The position numbers were made by a program, and so were the translations under genes. Below, piece by piece: positions 14,252-47,161 of a stretch of DNA of 64,000 nucleotides. Below the pieces are notes generated by a model. It did not search any database. It was given only the letters and a program-made list of their open reading frames with translations, and was not told the origin of the DNA. Position 1 is the first letter of the stretch, and every line of letters begins with the position of its first letter. The stretch spans positions 16,834 through 80,833 of IMG/VR virus record IMGVR_UViG_2934734009_000001; one strand, given 5' to 3'. The DNA is from a virus (taxonomy: Duplodnaviria; Caudoviricetes).

Positions 14252-14628
14252 CAGAGCGCCCGCGGGAGCTTGAAGACGGTGATCGCACCGGTGTGGCCGG
14301 ACGCGAAGTCGACGTGCAGCTTGGATCCCTGCTGCTGGAACCGGGCCGATGTGAACGGGCCCAGCCACTCCACACCGGAGGTGAGGGCCACAGACTGCAC
14401 CAGGTCCCCCTGGCCAGCCATCCACGCGGCCGTACCGGAACCGGCCTTGACAGTGACGTTCTTCGCCGAGCCGGCAGTGTTCGTGACCCGGATCAGCGTG
14501 TGCTCCGGGTCGACGTTGTTGATGACGACCCCGTTCGTGACGAGCGTGGAGTCGATCGTGGTCCCCGCCGGGTCGGTGAGGTGGTTGTTCGGAACGAGGG
14601 GCGTGTACGAGACTGCGGTGCGAGGCAT
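14251..14628 (-). CDS. Putative capsid decoration/accessory protein
   Basis: 125 aa beta-rich protein directly after the major capsid gene; function inferred from position. Confidence 0.55.
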   Translation of the reverse strand: MPRTAVSYTPLVPNNHLTDPAGTTIDSTLVTNGVVINNVDPEHTLIRVTNTAGSAKNVTVKAGSGTAAWMAGQGDLVQSVALTSGVEWLGPFTSARFQQQGSKLHVDFASGHTGAITVFKLPRAL

Positions 14629-28253: not shown

Positions 28254-30467
28254 CTATAGGGCGGCGTGGAGGGCGGCGAGCTTGAATCCACGCCCCTCCC
28301 CGCCGTCCGCCGTCGACACCTTCACGGCCTTCAACTCGACCTCGTCGGCCTCCAGGTCGGCAGACAGAAGCTTCCCGGCCCGCGACCCGTACTGGGCGTC
28401 GCTCTCCGCGTCGCCCCGCTCGTATCGCTCGTCGACCGTGGCCATGTACGCGAAGACCTCTCCGCGGGTCGCTTCGCCGCGGCCGGTGGCGGTGACGGCC
28501 TTGACGATGTGGTCGAGGATCGTCGGCTCCGCCTCGGCCTGGACCGCGGTGCCCTTTCCGGTGGGCCCGCCGGCGACCATGCTGATGCCGGTGTCGGCCC
28601 TGAGCTGGTCCTCGATCGGGTCCGGGCAGTGCTGGGGCAGGCGGCCTATGGCCTGGCGGAGCGCCATGCCCGCCTTGGCGGCCTTGCGGAGGTCCCCGTT
28701 CTCGACGTCGACAAACAGGGAGCGGGCTTCGATGAATCCGGTGTCGGGAGTGGTGAGCCAGCCGCGACCCCGGGTCGACTTGCTGTTCTTGATGTCGCTG
28801 GCGTCGTACCCGTCGCCCGCAACACCGTCACCGAGGATGGTGTTGGACGCTGTTGCGGACTCGACGCGCATCGACCACCGGCCAGCACAGTTGCCGCGGA
28901 GCCGGGACGGAATGACGTCGACCTTGGGGTGCTGGGTGGCGAGGACGAGGATGATCCCGACCGCGGCGCCGACAGCCGCGATCTGGGCGAGGAGCTCGAC
29001 GCTTTCTTCGGCGTACTGGCCGTTGAGACCGCCCTTGACGGTGTACGTGGCGAGCTCGTCGACGATGACGAGTTCGATGCCGCCGAGCTCCTCCAGGAGC
29101 TCCTCGGTGGCCTTGGAGACACCGAGGTCGACGAGGATCTCGGTGCGTCGTTCCAGTTCGGCGACGAGGACCTTGAGGAAGTCGCGGAGCCGTTCGGGGT
29201 TGCGGCGGACGAACGTGTCGAGGGCGGGGGCGATGCCGACGTACTCGCCGGTGCCCTTGCCGTCGAAGAGGCGGACACGGATGCGGGGGTCGAGCATGGC
29301 GCCGACGAGGAGGTTCGCGACGGCCATGCCCTTCCCGGAGCGGGTGGTGCCACCGACGAGCAGCGAGTAGTCGGAGATGGTGGCGAGGATGATGCTGCCG
29401 CGCTTGTCGAAACCGAGCGGGAGGCCATCACGCCAGGCGTTGACCTTGTCTGTGGTGCCGATGAGGGGGTTGGGGACGGCCCTGCCGAACGGGTCGGTCA
29501 TGGACACCCACAGGCTCAGGTGGTCTTCGCGGCCTTCGTGGCGGATGTCCATCTGGTGCTTCGGGATACCGAGCGCGGAGGCCAGGGATCCGGTCTTCTT
29601 CTGTACGTCGGCGACTTCGACGCCGCCGGTGACCTCCAGGTGAGCAAGCCAGGCTCGCCCGTCCTGGATAACTGGGGAACGGAACACAACGGCCTGGTCG
29701 GCCTTGATGATCCCGGCGTCACGGAACGCCCGGTCGATCATGTCGTCGGTCATCCGGTCGCCGTTGCCGATCTTCGCGTCCCGGTCGGTGTACACCTCTC
29801 CGCCCATGGTGCGCCGGCCGATCAGGGCGAGCGCGAGGAGAGCGGATCCGGTGGCGATGACACCGCCGGTGCCGCCAATGAGGTAGATGCCAGCCCCTTC
29901 CGGTACAGCGATGGCTGCGGCGGCGAGCGCACTGCGGGCTCCGCGCCGGACCCGGGCGTCCTTGCGGGCGGACTTGTACTTGGTCATGGCGGTAACGGAG
30001 CCGGCGAACGCTTTCTCCATGACGACGCGCCGCTTGTTCTTTTCAGGTCCGGGGATGAGCCGCTTGTCGTGCCCCCACTTCGCGGTTTTGTAGTCGGCCT
30101 GGGCCTGCTGGACTTCGCGGCGGGCGGTGGCGACCTGGACGCCTTCGGTGCCCTGGATCCAGAGGAACGTGCGCCGCATGCCCCGGAACAGCTGGGCGCC
30201 GTGTCCGTGTTCGCCACCCTGTCGGCGGACCCACCGGCGGAACGCCCGGGTGGAGTTGACCTTGCCGACCGCAGCACGGGTGCGCCACCCGGCGGAGGTG
30301 CGTACCCACTCCGGGGTGAGGGGGGTGTCGCCGAGAAGGTCGGGCCGGTTGACGGGGGTGTCGGCGGTCTTCTGGAGGAGCGGGCTGTCGGCCTTGTCGG
30401 CGAAGCCGGCGATGAGCTTGTCCCACTCCGGGTCTGGGGTGCTGGCGGGGGTGGTCTCGATGCTCAC
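28254..30467 (-). CDS. traB: FtsK/SpoIIIE-family conjugative DNA translocase (TraB/TraSA-like)
   Basis: GTG start overlaps the upstream TGA. N-terminal TM pair, Walker A GGTTRSGKG, LFDGKG, Walker B LVIVDELATY, LVLATQHP, GRGWL and a short wHTH-like C-terminus. Confidence 0.88.
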   Translation of the reverse strand: MSIETTPASTPDPEWDKLIAGFADKADSPLLQKTADTPVNRPDLLGDTPLTPEWVRTSAGWRTRAAVGKVNSTRAFRRWVRRQGGEHGHGAQLFRGMRRTFLWIQGTEGVQVATARREVQQAQADYKTAKWGHDKRLIPGPEKNKRRVVMEKAFAGSVTAMTKYKSARKDARVRRGARSALAAAAIAVPEGAGIYLIGGTGGVIATGSALLALALIGRRTMGGEVYTDRDAKIGNGDRMTDDMIDRAFRDAGIIKADQAVVFRSPVIQDGRAWLAHLEVTGGVEVADVQKKTGSLASALGIPKHQMDIRHEGREDHLSLWVSMTDPFGRAVPNPLIGTTDKVNAWRDGLPLGFDKRGSIILATISDYSLLVGGTTRSGKGMAVANLLVGAMLDPRIRVRLFDGKGTGEYVGIAPALDTFVRRNPERLRDFLKVLVAELERRTEILVDLGVSKATEELLEELGGIELVIVDELATYTVKGGLNGQYAEESVELLAQIAAVGAAVGIILVLATQHPKVDVIPSRLRGNCAGRWSMRVESATASNTILGDGVAGDGYDASDIKNSKSTRGRGWLTTPDTGFIEARSLFVDVENGDLRKAAKAGMALRQAIGRLPQHCPDPIEDQLRADTGISMVAGGPTGKGTAVQAEAEPTILDHIVKAVTATGRGEATRGEVFAYMATVDERYERGDAESDAQYGSRAGKLLSADLEADEVELKAVKVSTADGGEGRGFKLAALHAAL

Positions 30468-32203: not shown

Positions 32204-32398
32204 TCAGATGCGGGCGGTGGCGGGGTTCTTGCCGCGCAGGTGGGTGAGGGTGGCGACACCGAGCCCGAAGCCCAGCAACACGGGCTGGGCGGCTACGAAC
32301 TGCACGGTCGCGGCCAGCACATTGGCAACGGCCTGGGCGAGGCTGGGGAACAGGATCAGCAGCACCAGGGCTGCGGCGATCAACATCAGCTTCTTCAC
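32204..32398 (-). CDS. Small two-TM membrane protein
   Basis: VKKLMLIAAALVLLILFP...PVLLGFGLGV; GGAGG RBS. Confidence 0.65.
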   Translation of the reverse strand: MKKLMLIAAALVLLILFPSLAQAVANVLAATVQFVAAQPVLLGFGLGVATLTHLRGKNPATARI

Positions 32399-32440
32399 GG
32401 GGTGCGCCCCTCCGGGCTCGGGTTTGGGTGGTACGGGATA

Positions 32441-32488
32441 GCCCCGGGCGGGAGTTGATCCCGCGCCCTCGCGGCTGAAAGCCGGGGC
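32441..32488 (-). ncRNA. tRNA-like element 1 (acceptor stem plus T-arm, no anticodon arm)
   Basis: Minus strand GCCCCGG-17nt-GCGGG-ATCAACT-CCCGC-CCGGGGC. Confidence 0.55.
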
Positions 32489-32496
32489 TGTGATCA

Positions 32497-32682
32497 CTAC
32501 TTGTGCGGGCAGCGACCCTTGCAGGTGCACGGGACGTCGATCTGGTTGCGGATCGGGGCGAGAACGGCGTTGGCGACGGCGTCTCCGGCGCGCCCCCCTG
32601 CCTTCCCAGCAGCCTTGGTGCCCGCCCGGTGCAGAGCACCAGCGGCGGAGTCGAGCTTCTCGGCAGCCTTGCGTCCGAACAT
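32497..32682 (-). CDS. MFGR-start microprotein
   Basis: 61 aa, AAGGAG RBS, C-terminal CTCKGRC. Confidence 0.7.
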   Translation of the reverse strand: MFGRKAAEKLDSAAGALHRAGTKAAGKAGGRAGDAVANAVLAPIRNQIDVPCTCKGRCPHK

Positions 32683-32721
32683 TGGGTTCTCCTTCGGTAT
32701 GACCGACCTGGTGGTCGGAGC

Positions 32722-32768
32722 GCCCCGGGCCGGAGTCGATCCGGCAGCCTCACGCCGTAATCCGGGGC
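32722..32768 (-). ncRNA. tRNA-like element 2
   Basis: Minus strand GCCCCGG-16nt-GCCGG-ATCGACT-CCGGC-CCGGGGC; compensatory T-stem change relative to element 1. Confidence 0.55.
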
Positions 32769-32774
32769 GGCGGG

Positions 32775-33023
32775 TCAGCGGTTCAGCCAGCCGGCGCGCC
32801 GGCCGTCGCCGTCCGCAGCGACGACCTTCTCGACGTAGGCCACGACCTCTTCGCCGCGGGCATTGCAGCCCTTTGCCGTCAGCGCAGCCGCCAGGGTGCC
32901 GGTCCGGAACGTGGCCGCAGCCTCCTGGTCACCGCCCTTGACGGCCTTGCGAATGTCCTTGGTGAGTCCGGCGTGGCCGCTGACCTCAGTCGCGGTGTCG
33001 GTGATCCGGCTAAACAGGCCCAT
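32775..33023 (-). CDS. MGLFSR-start small protein
   Basis: 82 aa, GAAAGGA RBS. Confidence 0.7.
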   Translation of the reverse strand: MGLFSRITDTATEVSGHAGLTKDIRKAVKGGDQEAAATFRTGTLAAALTAKGCNARGEEVVAYVEKVVAADGDGRRAGWLNR

Positions 33024-33116
33024 GACGGTCCTTTCGGGTCAGTGCCCGGCGGATGCGGCCGGGCTTCGCGGTGATCAGATACGAGTGCACGACAGCCCCT
33101 TCTCGGAGCCGATGGG

Positions 33117-33500
33117 TCAGCGGCAGCGTCGGCAGCCAGCGCCGTGGGCGATGCGGCACAGCTCGGCCGGGGTGAAGCCGCCCAGGGTGCCGGTGTGGGT
33201 GACCTCGGTTTCCATCACGCGCCCGCGTCCGCTGCCGTCGGGGACGTCGATCTCCCACCCGGTGGTGGCGTACTTGCCACGACCGACCTTCTTGATCTGT
33301 CCGACGGTCCTGACCCGGGCGCGCTTTGCTGCCTTGGCCTCCCGGCGTTCCTGCGCACGGGCCATCGCGGTCTGCTTGGCCTCCTGGTAGACGGCCTCCG
33401 GGATGGCTGCCGCAGGGGTGGCTGCCGCAGCCTGCTGGGCGGCGCGATAGCGCTCCTCCGGGGTGCTGACACGGTCGATCTTTCGGCTGAACAGGCCCAT
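33117..33500 (-). CDS. MGLFSR-start small protein
   Basis: 127 aa, GAGAGGA RBS, C-terminal C-x3-H-x3-CRRC. Confidence 0.7.
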   Translation of the reverse strand: MGLFSRKIDRVSTPEERYRAAQQAAAATPAAAIPEAVYQEAKQTAMARAQERREAKAAKRARVRTVGQIKKVGRGKYATTGWEIDVPDGSGRGRVMETEVTHTGTLGGFTPAELCRIAHGAGCRRCR

Positions 33501-33529: not shown

Positions 33530-33760
33530 CTACCGGCTGGTCTCTGCGGCGACCGCGGCTTCCCGCACCTCGGCGATCGCCGCGGCAATCCGACCGGTGT
33601 CCCCGCCTGCCGCCTCGTTGAGCTGCCGGGCGGCGGCGGTCTGCCGGTTGATGTCGTCGTCCGACATGCGACCCGGGTTCGTGAGGGCACCGCTGTGGGC
33701 GACCTCGGACAGCAGGTTGGCGGCGGCCTGACGCTCGGCGGGGGTGCTACGTCCGAACAC
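33530..33760 (-). CDS. MFGR-start small protein
   Basis: 76 aa, AAGGAG RBS. Confidence 0.7.
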   Translation of the reverse strand: MFGRSTPAERQAAANLLSEVAHSGALTNPGRMSDDDINRQTAAARQLNEAAGGDTGRIAAAIAEVREAAVAAETSR

Positions 33761-33775: not shown

Positions 33776-34258
33776 TTAGTTGGCGATCAGGTTGAGTGCG
33801 GCGGTGACGGTGCCGGGGAGGGTGGTGCAGACAGGCACGTTGTGGCGGCGGGCCACGTAGGCCAAGTACCGGTTCCGCTCCGGGTTGGGGCAGTCGTCCG
33901 GAATCCCGAGGACCGCCCGGCCGCTGGTGACGTCCAACCCGAACTCGACGTTGGTCGTCATGCCCGGCATCGTCTTCAGGTCCCGGGGGATCCAGAAGAG
34001 AATCGCGGTGGCAGCGGCGCGGGCGTCGGTCTCCCAGTCGACCTGCGTCTCGTACCGGTCGGCCCGCACGCCGTTCCGGGACTCGGGGCTCAGCACAGTC
34101 AGGGTTTCCGGGCCGGCCCACTGGTCGGCCAGGATCTTGAGGGCGGTGGGCCGCCACGACGGAACCGGGTTGCTCTTGTCCGGAGTCGGCCCCGCCAAGA
34201 ACACAGACGGGCCGACGGGGAGGGGCTCGCGGGCCATGACCAGCTTGACGATGCTCAT
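33776..34258 (-). CDS. Nucleoside 2-deoxyribosyltransferase-like domain protein
   Basis: SVFLAGP...SWR...SPE...QVDWE...ILFWIPR...TTNVEFG motif series. Confidence 0.8.
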   Translation of the reverse strand: MSIVKLVMAREPLPVGPSVFLAGPTPDKSNPVPSWRPTALKILADQWAGPETLTVLSPESRNGVRADRYETQVDWETDARAAATAILFWIPRDLKTMPGMTTNVEFGLDVTSGRAVLGIPDDCPNPERNRYLAYVARRHNVPVCTTLPGTVTAALNLIAN

Positions 34259-34629
34259 GCCCCCGCCTCCTTCGCCGCGGCACGGGCCTCGTGCTGCGGA
34301 GTCCACGGCAAGGGCAGGTCGTCGCCGTCCCGCCGGGGGACGATGTGGACGTGGAGGTGGAAGACGCTCTGCGTCGCCTCGGTGCCCTTGCTGGTGATGA
34401 GGTTCGCGGCGGGCAGCTCGGCCATCAGCTCGGCTGCCCGCCCCATCACCGCCTTGGTGACCTCGATGTCGGTTCCCGCGTCCTCGACGTGAACCCGCGG
34501 CAGGACGAAGACGTGGCCGTCGGTGCAGCCACCGCTACGGGGACGGATCGCAATCGCGTCGTCCCACTCACGCACGATGGTGGCGGGCACCTGGCCGGCG
34601 ACGATGCGGCAGAAAACGCAGTCCGACAT
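34255..34629 (-). CDS. HIT family nucleotide hydrolase
   Basis: CVFCRIVAG...GHVFVLPRVHV...QSVFHLHVHIVPR histidine triad. Confidence 0.92.
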   Translation of the reverse strand: MSDCVFCRIVAGQVPATIVREWDDAIAIRPRSGGCTDGHVFVLPRVHVEDAGTDIEVTKAVMGRAAELMAELPAANLITSKGTEATQSVFHLHVHIVPRRDGDDLPLPWTPQHEARAAAKEAGA

Positions 34630-46481: not shown

Positions 46482-46751
46482 TCAGGCGGCCTCCGCCAGC
46501 GCCGCCAGCAACGCCTTTCGGTTCGCCGCGGCCTGTGCGGGTGAGGTCTGGACCCGGGTCGGCCTGTCGCCCAACACCCGCCCGGTGGGGAGCGCTTCGG
46601 CGTACAGGCGGCCGAGCCGGTCGGCGGGCGGGAGGCGGAGTGCGTGCCTGGCCCGGCCGACGGTGGCGGGGTCGCAGCCGAGGCGGTGGGCGATGGAGGC
46701 GTTGGTGTGGCCTTCGCGGATGAGCTCGGCGATGTCGGCGCGGATCTTCAT
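46482..46751 (-). CDS. HTH domain protein
   Basis: GHTNASIAHRLGCDPATVGRAR. Confidence 0.7.
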   Translation of the reverse strand: MKIRADIAELIREGHTNASIAHRLGCDPATVGRARHALRLPPADRLGRLYAEALPTGRVLGDRPTRVQTSPAQAAANRKALLAALAEAA

Positions 46752-47161
46752 GTGCTGGCCTCCTTGGCGATGGCGTTCTCGTAGCAAGCGCGGGCGGCAA
46801 TGAACTGGGCGTCGGTGCCGCCCCGGTCGGGATGGGCTGCGGCCATCTCGGCTTTGAGCCGGGGCAGGTCGAGATCCCACTGAGGCGGGAAGGTCTGCGG
46901 CGGCTGGGCGTGAAGCCGGAGGTCCGGCTCCCACCACTGGCCTCGCCGGGTGATCTCACCGTCGGTCTCAAGGCGGTACCGGTCGACGAACCGGATGCGC
47001 GGGCCTCGGCCATAGAGCTCGGCGTCGTAGTAGATCCGCTTCGCGGTCTTCTTCGTGATCCGGAAGGCGACGACGCTCTCGGGCTGCCAGTCGTCGTTGG
47101 CATCGAAGCGGCCGGGCTTGATGCCGTACAGGAACTCAACCTGCACCGGGGCGGCGCTCAT
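46748..47161 (-). CDS. Hypothetical protein with C-terminal J-domain-like HPD motif
   Basis: LKAEMAAAHPDRGGTDAQFIAARACYE. Confidence 0.65.
   Translation of the reverse strand: MSAAPVQVEFLYGIKPGRFDANDDWQPESVVAFRITKKTAKRIYYDAELYGRGPRIRFVDRYRLETDGEITRRGQWWEPDLRLHAQPPQTFPPQWDLDLPRLKAEMAAAHPDRGGTDAQFIAARACYENAIAKEAST

Follow-up and report, generated by a model that had tools for sequence, protein, structure and literature searches.

Background

Transfer RNAs (tRNAs) punctuate the transcripts of mitochondria, and in plant mitochondria the tRNA-like 't-elements', which mimic the acceptor stem and T arm, serve as processing signals for ribonuclease (RNase) P and RNase Z. The same pair of enzymes cuts small tRNA-like RNAs of the mascRNA type from long eukaryotic transcripts. 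In bacteria, what RNase P, RNase Z and the CCA-adding enzyme recognise is the coaxial domain formed by acceptor stem and T arm, and all accept minihelix substrates. G+C-rich hairpins that follow stop codons are also familiar, as REP/BOX-type intergenic repeats and as the U-tract-less hairpin 'terminators' of actinomycetes. Here we describe two short elements, E1 and E2, that lie between small genes on the minus strand of a 64,000-nucleotide (nt) stretch of viral DNA, hereafter the window, taken from an IMG/VR record of 80.8 kb (IMGVR_UViG_2934734009_000001) that is classed as a provirus. Database searches confirm that both elements belong to a widespread RNA family found on Streptomyces conjugative plasmids, integrated elements and phages, and a comparison of its members suggests what such an RNA might do between the genes of an operon.

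Fold and covariation

E1 and E2 share the common plan that an initial annotation, made from the window alone, had recognised on the minus strand: a 7-bp outer stem (P1), a 3-bp hairpin (P2) with a GYGAG loop, and a 5-bp stem (P3) capped by a 7-nt AUCRACU loop. P3 abuts the 3' strand of P1, giving a three-way junction that is also the minimum-free-energy structure of both elements (-30.2 kcal/mol for E1 and -30.8 kcal/mol for E2). Fold energy alone is unremarkable in sequence of 75% G+C, with z scores of -1.2 and -2.7 respectively. P3, the T-stem of the initial annotation, covaries between the two copies as had been claimed, but the description of the elements as 'armless', with an unstructured linker, has to be given up: the linker forms a covarying 3-bp hairpin of its own, GGC/GCU in E1 and GCC/GGC in E2. 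On the 3' side, E1 is followed by an unpaired G at 32721 and then CUCC, and the base next to P1 of E2 is a U at 32440. The motif GCCCCGG-N30-45-CCGGGGC occurs three times in the window against 0.13 expected, a number reached in none of 100 shuffles.

To collect relatives we used a pattern that fixes P1, GYGAS and ATCNNNT only and leaves the stems of P2 and P3 free. It returned at least 120 loci from a species-representative genome collection and 34 from IMG/VR, together at least 173 matches with at least 146 distinct cores. P2 is fully paired in 142 of the cores and P3 in 138, the latter as 21 different fully paired versions of the stem. In the alignment from which we built a covariance model (alignment A1, model R1), 99.3% of cells pair as against 91.8% in shuffled versions, none of 500 shuffles reaching the observed value, and double changes fill 107 cells as against 18.7 in shuffles; when the partner is slid by one column, pairing falls to 53-64%. 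The compensatory changes in P2 and P3 across the 146 cores thus provide the covariation among homologues for which the initial annotation had proposed to look.

The same stems reveal the strand on which the fold is read. P2 and P3 together contain 63 G.U pairs against three A.C, an excess that places the structure on the sense strand and would be unexpected for the opposite strand or for a site in duplex DNA. Core lengths of 46, 47, 48 and 49 nt occur in 30, 20, 59 and 37 copies, so that no reading frame is conserved. These observations support the view that the elements are structured RNAs on the sense strand, with a fold that is under selection.

Two further observations concern the window itself. 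A candidate third member at 46814-46871 (minus) scores 24.6 bits on model R1 and has the same P1 and a P2-like hairpin, but it has no P3 and lies inside a coding open reading frame (ORF; 46748-47161), and we judged it a chance or decayed resemblance. In a global fold of 411 nt, the 5' arm of E1 pairs with the 3' arm of E2 because the P1 arms are identical, looping out the cistron between them (z +0.67); this cross-pairing may be an artefact of equilibrium folding or a real alternative conformation, and is uninformative on local co-transcriptional folding.

Distribution of the family

A blastn search of 2 kb against plasmids gave isolated matches of about 55 nt, confined to the element and 85-93% identical, in intergenic regions without annotation on Streptomyces plasmids that otherwise have little in common. 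On one 32-kb plasmid, three copies separate successive small genes upstream of traA and traB. Streptomyces is likewise named in 77 of 80 titles among the pattern matches listed for the genome collection. Complete genomes of 8-11 Mb hold only one to three strong copies each, usually clustered within a few kb to about 80 kb, and under strict filters a match at E <=1e-5 was found in 23 of 151 evenly sampled Streptomyces species genomes. With so few and clustered copies and so patchy a presence, the element is best described as cargo of mobile elements, not as a genome-wide repeat.

Position between cistrons

The elements sit exactly between cistrons and are co-oriented with the genes, in keeping with the intergenic placement originally described. 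Judged by the phase of GC content over codon positions (n=169), coding downstream of the element runs on its own strand in 129 copies and on the other strand in seven; upstream the figures are 83 and seven, the rest being weak or too short. Spacing is similarly constrained: where an upstream ORF was called, 75 of 101 copies begin 6-14 nt past its stop codon, and 48 of 159 copies end 37-41 nt ahead of the start codon. The spacer downstream is rich in C and A, with C making up 52% and G 16% of the first 22 nt, and Shine-Dalgarno-like purines stand at -12 to -7 before the start codon.

The window conforms to this layout. E1 begins 6 nt after the TGA of an 82-amino-acid (aa) ORF, and at other loci the homologues of that ORF are likewise followed by an element after 6 nt. 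E1 and E2 flank a 61-aa ORF that begins MFGR, as first reported, with 39 nt between the end of E1 and its ATG and 8 nt between its TAG and the start of E2. Another 42 nt separate the end of E2 from the GTG of a 64-aa ORF whose homologues at two other loci (L127 and L142) follow an element at 48 nt. The arrangement can be repeated in series: locus L130 reads ORF56, 8 nt, element, 42 nt, ORF67, 8 nt, element, 44 nt, ORF72, 7 nt, element, 41 nt, ORF63, and both L130 and L002 hold three elements in a row within 700 nt. The downstream ORFs are diverse, falling into 66 sequence clusters among 159, and include TraB/FtsK-like proteins, small membrane proteins and conserved proteins of the integrative and conjugative elements of actinomycetes (AICEs).

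Resemblance to tRNA

The elements appear to mimic the acceptor/T-arm half of a tRNA, a reading supported by their covariation, by a paired 3' strand of 12 nt across subfamilies, by the unpaired purine after a strict 7-bp stem, and by the tRNAs that come next after the elements in searches with model R1. E1, E2 and all 146 cores combine 7 bp of P1 and 5 bp of P3 into a 12-bp coaxial counterpart of acceptor and T stems under a 7-nt T-like loop. A scan in which the total stem length was left free peaks at 12 (34, against 10 at 11 and 10 at 13; the reversed-sequence control gave 5). Sister subfamilies that occur in the same operons as the main family have canonical T loops (UUCGAMU); built on either 6+6 or 7+5 bp, all keep exactly 12 paired nt between the loop and the unpaired purine and share the ACUC trailer. 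Subfamily B has 6+6 bp, a 10-11-nt linker AUGGUCGYAG and the loop UUCGACU, and B' adds to this a GNRA-capped hairpin in the linker; subfamily C has GCCCCGC/GCGGGGC as P1, an insert of 32-35 nt and the loop UUCGAAU or UUCGAAC.

The bases at -1 and +1 around P1 could pair in only 14 of the 146 copies. Of 169 copies, 158 have a purine at +1 and 162 a C at +2, within a conserved run directly 3' of P1 of unpaired purine, C, U or G, and C; by position, the purine and the following C would match the discriminator base and C74 of a tRNA. The T-loop keeps U55, C56 and R57, with A at position 54 in the main family and U in subfamilies B and C, the A, U, C and last U having been fixed by the search pattern. 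In five complete genomes, the matches that R1 ranks next below the elements, at 33.9-36.4 bits, are tRNAs that both ARAGORN and Rfam confirm. The acceptor/T-arm likeness seen in the initial annotation is therefore upheld by the 7+5 bp, the unpaired purine and the behaviour of the model. The same annotation pointed to an ACCA 6-8 nt downstream; it is present in both copies but not conserved across the family, in which the spacer is rich in C and A.

Some members come closer to a whole tRNA. Certain main-family variants carry an extra hairpin between P1 and P2, which lends them a four-arm, cloverleaf-like outline. ARAGORN calls three subfamily-C copies 'tRNA-Gly' or 'tRNA-Glu' of 66-68 nt; these are unlikely to decode because the 'anticodon' differs between homologous copies. 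Phage Lilbooboo, of the phiBT1 group, has an annotated 88-nt 'tRNA-Gly' with an odd anticodon position (L167:1440-1527, plus strand) that scores 41.8 bits on R1 and is separated by 6 nt from the stop codon before it and by 37 nt from the start codon after it, with the trailer ACUCAC; it has the look of a full-size relative occupying this slot. The stretch that matches this 'tRNA-Gly' in phiBT1 and four other phages is unannotated.

E1 and E2 themselves are not tRNA genes. Against the tRNA family (RF00005), E2 scores 17.9 bits (E 0.64) where the threshold is 29, in an alignment that wrongly takes the 5' strand of P1 for an anticodon stem, and E1 gives no match; ARAGORN finds no tRNA gene in the window. 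The D arm and anticodon arm of the cloverleaf are absent, the 15-18 nt between P1 and P3 holding a single 3-bp hairpin.

A hammerhead ribozyme in the same slot

One operon of the family (L025) reads ORF60, 11 nt, main-family element, 36 nt, ORF143, type II hammerhead ribozyme, small ORF, subfamily-C element, 22 nt, ORF63. The hammerhead (L025:1504-1566, minus) scores 50.1 bits against an Rfam threshold of 37 and overlaps the stop codon of the 143-aa ORF. A weaker one lies at L066:722-785 on the minus strand (32.1 bits), and another on the minus strand of L146 at the homologous position. A regular-expression scan for hammerheads over all loci returned 25 raw matches against 21 in reversed controls, of which only those in L025, L066 and L146 are convincing; over 32300-32900 of the window no Rfam ribozyme family matches at E up to 10. 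A self-cleaving RNA in the slot of the tRNA mimics is circumstantial evidence that these slots are sites at which RNA is cut.

Proposed punctuation by the tRNA-trimming enzymes

From the family, its fold and strand, its likeness to tRNA and its position between genes we infer cleavage, the enzymes responsible and an effect on expression, in a reading to which we give a probability of roughly 55%. Each element would be a three-way junction of 46-49 nt that imitates the acceptor-stem/T-arm half of a CCA-less precursor tRNA between two cistrons, and its most likely function would be to be excised, or cleaved on one side, by host RNase P / RNase Z. In outline, the operon would be transcribed as a single long RNA in which each element folds locally, the 7-bp P1 and 5-bp P3 forming a 12-bp coaxial 'minihelix' with the T-like loop as its cap and P2 standing in place of the D and anticodon region. 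Host RNase P would cut at the 5' side of G1, and RNase Z or 3' trimming would cut after the unpaired purine. The polycistron would in this way be resolved into single-gene messenger RNAs (mRNAs), the upstream mRNA ending a few nt past its own stop codon and the downstream mRNA opening with some 40 nt of C/A-rich leader in which the ribosome-binding site lies. Candidates for the enzymes are at hand: type-A RNase P RNA scores over the cut-off in five of five host genomes, and all five encode a full-length RNase Z homologue, at 266-284 bits, just under the curated cut-off of 293. A review credits Streptomyces coelicolor with RNase P (PMC10126417).

Several points weigh against this reading. The shuffle counts are not probabilities, as the copies are akin to each other and the statistics are inflated; P1 was fixed by the search pattern, and its covariation rests on a few variants found by the model, mostly G.U, and on subfamily C; and the ORF calls behind the distances to stop and start codons are heuristic. 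As tRNA mimics the elements are also imperfect, with a trailer of ACUC or ACGC, not ACCA (RCCA is encoded in only seven of 146 copies), and with A, not U, at T-loop position 54 in the main family. In 29 of 146 copies G replaces the near-universal A58 (loops AUCGGAU and AUCAGAU), and the loop A and last U could pair, in line with the minimum-free-energy fold, so that a plain loop of 5 nt is left. If the element were cut on both sides, the upstream mRNA would lose its protective 3' structure. Finally, a related operon of pZL12 (L169, GQ919031 60823-69212), in which small genes, a membrane protein and an FtsK-like gene diverge from a GntR regulator, has no copy of the element, its intergenic gaps being only about 40 nt; as that operon is partly homologous yet lacks a copy, the element is modular and dispensable for this operon type.

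If the elements are indeed cut by enzymes of tRNA maturation, they would be the first dedicated family of tRNA mimics to serve as intercistronic punctuation in bacteria. Such punctuation would explain how small genes obtain individually tuned messages from the long operons that Streptomyces plasmids, integrative elements and phages use for transfer and spread. It would furnish a marker for annotating these operons, in which the elements now go unannotated or are mis-called as odd short tRNAs, and a compact natural 'cut here' module of 48 nt for multigene expression in actinomycetes. Whether or not they are cut, they constitute a new and well-supported family of structured RNAs with more than 150 copies.

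Alternative explanations

We take the alternatives in the order in which we rank them. An uncut element could act as a stabiliser or insulator that blocks 3' exonucleases or 5'-end-dependent decay, or separates the translation of neighbouring cistrons, its tRNA likeness being the relic of a tRNA gene. Structures of about -30 kcal/mol directly after stop codons would suit that role, as would the simple hairpins that fill some neighbouring intergenic regions and an operon that, in pZL12, manages without the element. Left unexplained, however, are the conserved loops with their invariant UC, the strict 7-bp P1 with its unpaired purine and C, the 12-nt rule across subfamilies that partition their stems differently, and the hammerhead in an equivalent slot, and we consider this explanation unlikely. 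Alternatively, the excised RNA of about 48 nt might itself be the product, a tRNA mimic that titrates, for example, tRNA-binding enzymes or nucleases of the donor or recipient in trans, which is compatible with processing. The evidence for tRNA mimicry applies equally here, and the several copies per operon and the sequence conservation between otherwise dissimilar plasmids are in its favour; yet the tight spacing to stop and start codons points to a role in cis, and an RNA without an anticodon arm does not mimic the substrate of anticodon nucleases, so that we hold a trans-acting product to be improbable. Nothing in the analysis speaks for the decoy of tRNA-targeting toxins suggested in the initial annotation. 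A related scheme of mitochondria-like punctuation, in which purpose-made miniature mimics of about 48 nt, interchangeable with hammerheads, are freed by RNase P and RNase Z, CCA-tailed and accumulate as trans-acting small RNAs during conjugation or infection, for example to occupy tRNA-binding enzymes or defence nucleases of the recipient, strikes us as unlikely.

Terminators without a U-tract have been proposed for actinomycetes and for the early region of phiC31, and an element of this kind might terminate or attenuate transcription and so set the polarity of the operon. Such a terminator might look like a G+C-rich hairpin behind a stop codon, next to a stretch rich in C and poor in G that could load Rho; but there is no U-tract, T being the rarest base at almost every position from +1 to +40, three elements in a row (L130, L002) would silence distal genes including traB, and both the three-way junction and the T-like loop would be superfluous. 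A scan for intrinsic terminators found no minus-strand site at the positions of E1 and E2, and the chance that they are terminators is slim. Equally slender is the case for a selfish, tRNA-derived miniature repeat that spreads among mobile elements with no function in the operon. It would account for near-identical copies between unrelated genes, for homologous operons that differ in presence or absence of the element, and for its patchiness among species, but not for the absence of genome-wide spread, the co-linear orientation, the fixed spacing to stop and start codons, or the compensatory changes and G.U bias that betray selection on an RNA fold. Where a REP- or MITE-like dispersed repeat would have many chromosomal copies in both orientations, we find one to three strong copies per complete genome and an orientation of 129 to 7; neither of the identities that the initial annotation had feared, a known terminator or a REP family, therefore fits. 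As a translational operator, the element would bind a protein of the host or of the mobile element and control the downstream gene, and the fixed distance of about 40 nt to the next start codon and the complementarity of an ACUCC trailer to the GGAG of the downstream Shine-Dalgarno sequence could be read in this light. The diversity of downstream genes, with no constantly co-occurring protein family, and the ACGC trailer of about a third of the copies, which is not complementary to the Shine-Dalgarno sequence, make an operator very improbable. Last in our ranking, and extremely improbable, comes a site that works at the level of DNA, be it a pseudo-attachment site for integrases that target tRNAs, a TraB recognition (clt) site or a single-strand replication origin. 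P1 of E1 matches at seven of eight bases the 8-mer GACCCGGA, the TraB recognition sequence of pSVH1, the clt locus being a cluster of 8-bp direct repeats; the window has 17 exact GACCCGGA sites, but E1 and E2 contain none of them and no cluster is found there. Integration of actinomycete integrative elements into tRNA genes, described in PMC2440964, also counts in favour of a DNA-level site. The 63:3 asymmetry of G.U over A.C is nevertheless unexpected for a protein site in duplex DNA, several copies per operon are co-oriented with transcription, and the same type of element occurs in a double-stranded DNA phage. An integrase attachment site in particular was rejected, with two copies 234 nt apart inside the operon, up to three at other loci, and the 5' acceptor strand included.

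Genes around the elements

The features of the locus are collected in Table 1. The initial annotation spoke of a 'transfer operon', and the TraB-like gene about 2 kb downstream on the same strand makes the label reasonable, but the family occurs in phage-type records as well; NCBIfam plasmid_TraB scores 25 bits on this gene, far under its cut-off. One gene of the operon resembles the phage-plasmid pZL12. Neither Pfam nor NCBIfam has a family for the 82-aa ORF. A simple hairpin stands in the 93-nt gap between genes that comes next upstream, 20 nt from the ATG of this ORF; it does not match model R1 (10.1 bits for 33038-33070) and may be a reduced relative of the element.

Table 1. Features of the window around E1 and E2, numbered from the first letter of the window
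Feature	Position	Strand	Basis and details
E1, tRNA-like element, 47 nt	32722..32768	minus	sequence, fold, model R1 68.1 bits, E 5e-12; order (32768..32722) GCCCCGG-ATTAC-GGC-GTGAG-GCT-GCCGG-ATCGACT-CCGGC-CCGGGGC
E1 P1	32768-32762 with 32728-32722	minus	linker 32761-32757
E1 P2	32756-32754 with 32748-32746	minus	loop GUGAG 32753-32749
E1 P3	32745-32741 with 32733-32729	minus	T-like loop AUCGACU 32740-32734
E2, tRNA-like element, 48 nt	32441..32488	minus	sequence, fold, model R1 71.2 bits, E 1.1e-12; order (32488..32441) GCCCCGG-CTTTCA-GCC-GCGAG-GGC-GCGGG-ATCAACT-CCCGC-CCGGGGC
E2 P1	32488-32482 with 32447-32441	minus	linker 32481-32476
E2 P2	32475-32473 with 32467-32465	minus	loop GCGAG 32472-32468
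E2 P3	32464-32460 with 32452-32448	minus	T-like loop AUCAACU 32459-32453
82-aa ORF (MGLFSRITDT...)	32775..33023	minus	ORF list; GC by codon position 0.69/0.55/0.86, coding-like
61-aa ORF (MFGRKAAEK...)	32497..32682	minus	ORF list; GC at third codon positions (GC3) 0.82; Shine-Dalgarno GAAGGAG before ATG
64-aa hydrophobic, membrane-like ORF (VKKLMLIAAALVLL...)	32204..32398	minus	ORF list; GC3 0.91
FtsK/SpoIIIE-type, TraB-like DNA translocase gene	28254..30401	minus	Pfam FtsK_SpoIIIE 4.7e-10
7-bp hairpin GCCCGGC/GCCGGGC, 7-nt loop, then ACU	33044..33064	minus	sequence

The small proteins encoded between elements often start alike (MGLFSRK..., MFGRK..., MFGKK..., MGLFTRK...) and differ in the remainder. 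Such N-termini are found in the window at 33530-33760, 33117-33500, 32775-33023 and 32497-32682, all on the minus strand, as well as in L002 and L130, and none of these proteins belongs to a Pfam or NCBIfam family. Just upstream, also on the minus strand and thus on that of the transfer-type genes, a nucleoside 2-deoxyribosyltransferase-like gene (33776-34306) and a HIT-family (HinT-like) gene (34255-34629) overlap by about 50 nt. The 17 copies of GACCCGGA in the window compare with about seven expected (0 of 100 shuffles reach 17); 13 of them are on the minus strand, and examples are at 14485, 14504, 30427 and 59159.

Comparison with known systems

Rfam 15 gives no gathering-level match anywhere in the window, and only noise and the sub-threshold tRNA at E up to 10 over 32300-32900. 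The full-text literature likewise yielded no described family, its supplements and much of the older Streptomyces literature lying outside the scope of the search, so that a prior mention is possible; passages in PMC10732093, PMC10126417 and PMC4447253 do not mention the element. The initial annotation, which knew of no described family, agrees with both sources.

The known systems each share something with the elements. REP/BOX-type repeats and U-tract-less terminators are likewise hairpins of high G+C content that follow stop codons between genes; E1 and E2 are three-way junctions with conserved loops, in few copies per genome, on mobile elements only and in strict orientation. The type II hammerhead (RF02276), a ribozyme found between genes in operons of phages and prophages, sits in L025 directly at a stop codon, among small genes of an operon that also carries the elements, with cutting of the polycistron as the presumed outcome, but it cleaves itself, whereas E1 and E2, in which the CUGANGA and GAAA core is missing, would depend on host enzymes. 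In common with a CCA-less precursor tRNA (RF00005), the elements have a 7-bp acceptor-like stem stacked on a 5-bp stem, a 7-nt loop that in most copies holds UC-R-A and an unpaired purine after the stem; they differ from it in having only a 3-bp hairpin in place of D and anticodon arms, a length of 46-49 nt, A for U54 in the main family and a sub-threshold score. A mascRNA is also a tRNA-like fold within a longer RNA, and in its own system defines the ends of the flanking RNA, but it is eukaryotic and a full cloverleaf of about 60 nt, with no sequence relation to the elements, and the Rfam mascRNA family has no match in the window. A further parallel is the punctuation of mitochondrial transcripts, in which tRNAs or tRNA-like structures also stand between the coding units of a polycistron with almost no spacer after the stop codon; what sets the present family apart is its bacterial host, its carriage by plasmids, integrative elements and phages, its dedicated and sequence-conserved form, and a processing step that we infer here. 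Thus, tRNA-like processing signals are known from organelles and from the long RNAs of eukaryotes, while a dedicated miniature family that punctuates the operons of bacterial mobile elements appears to be new.

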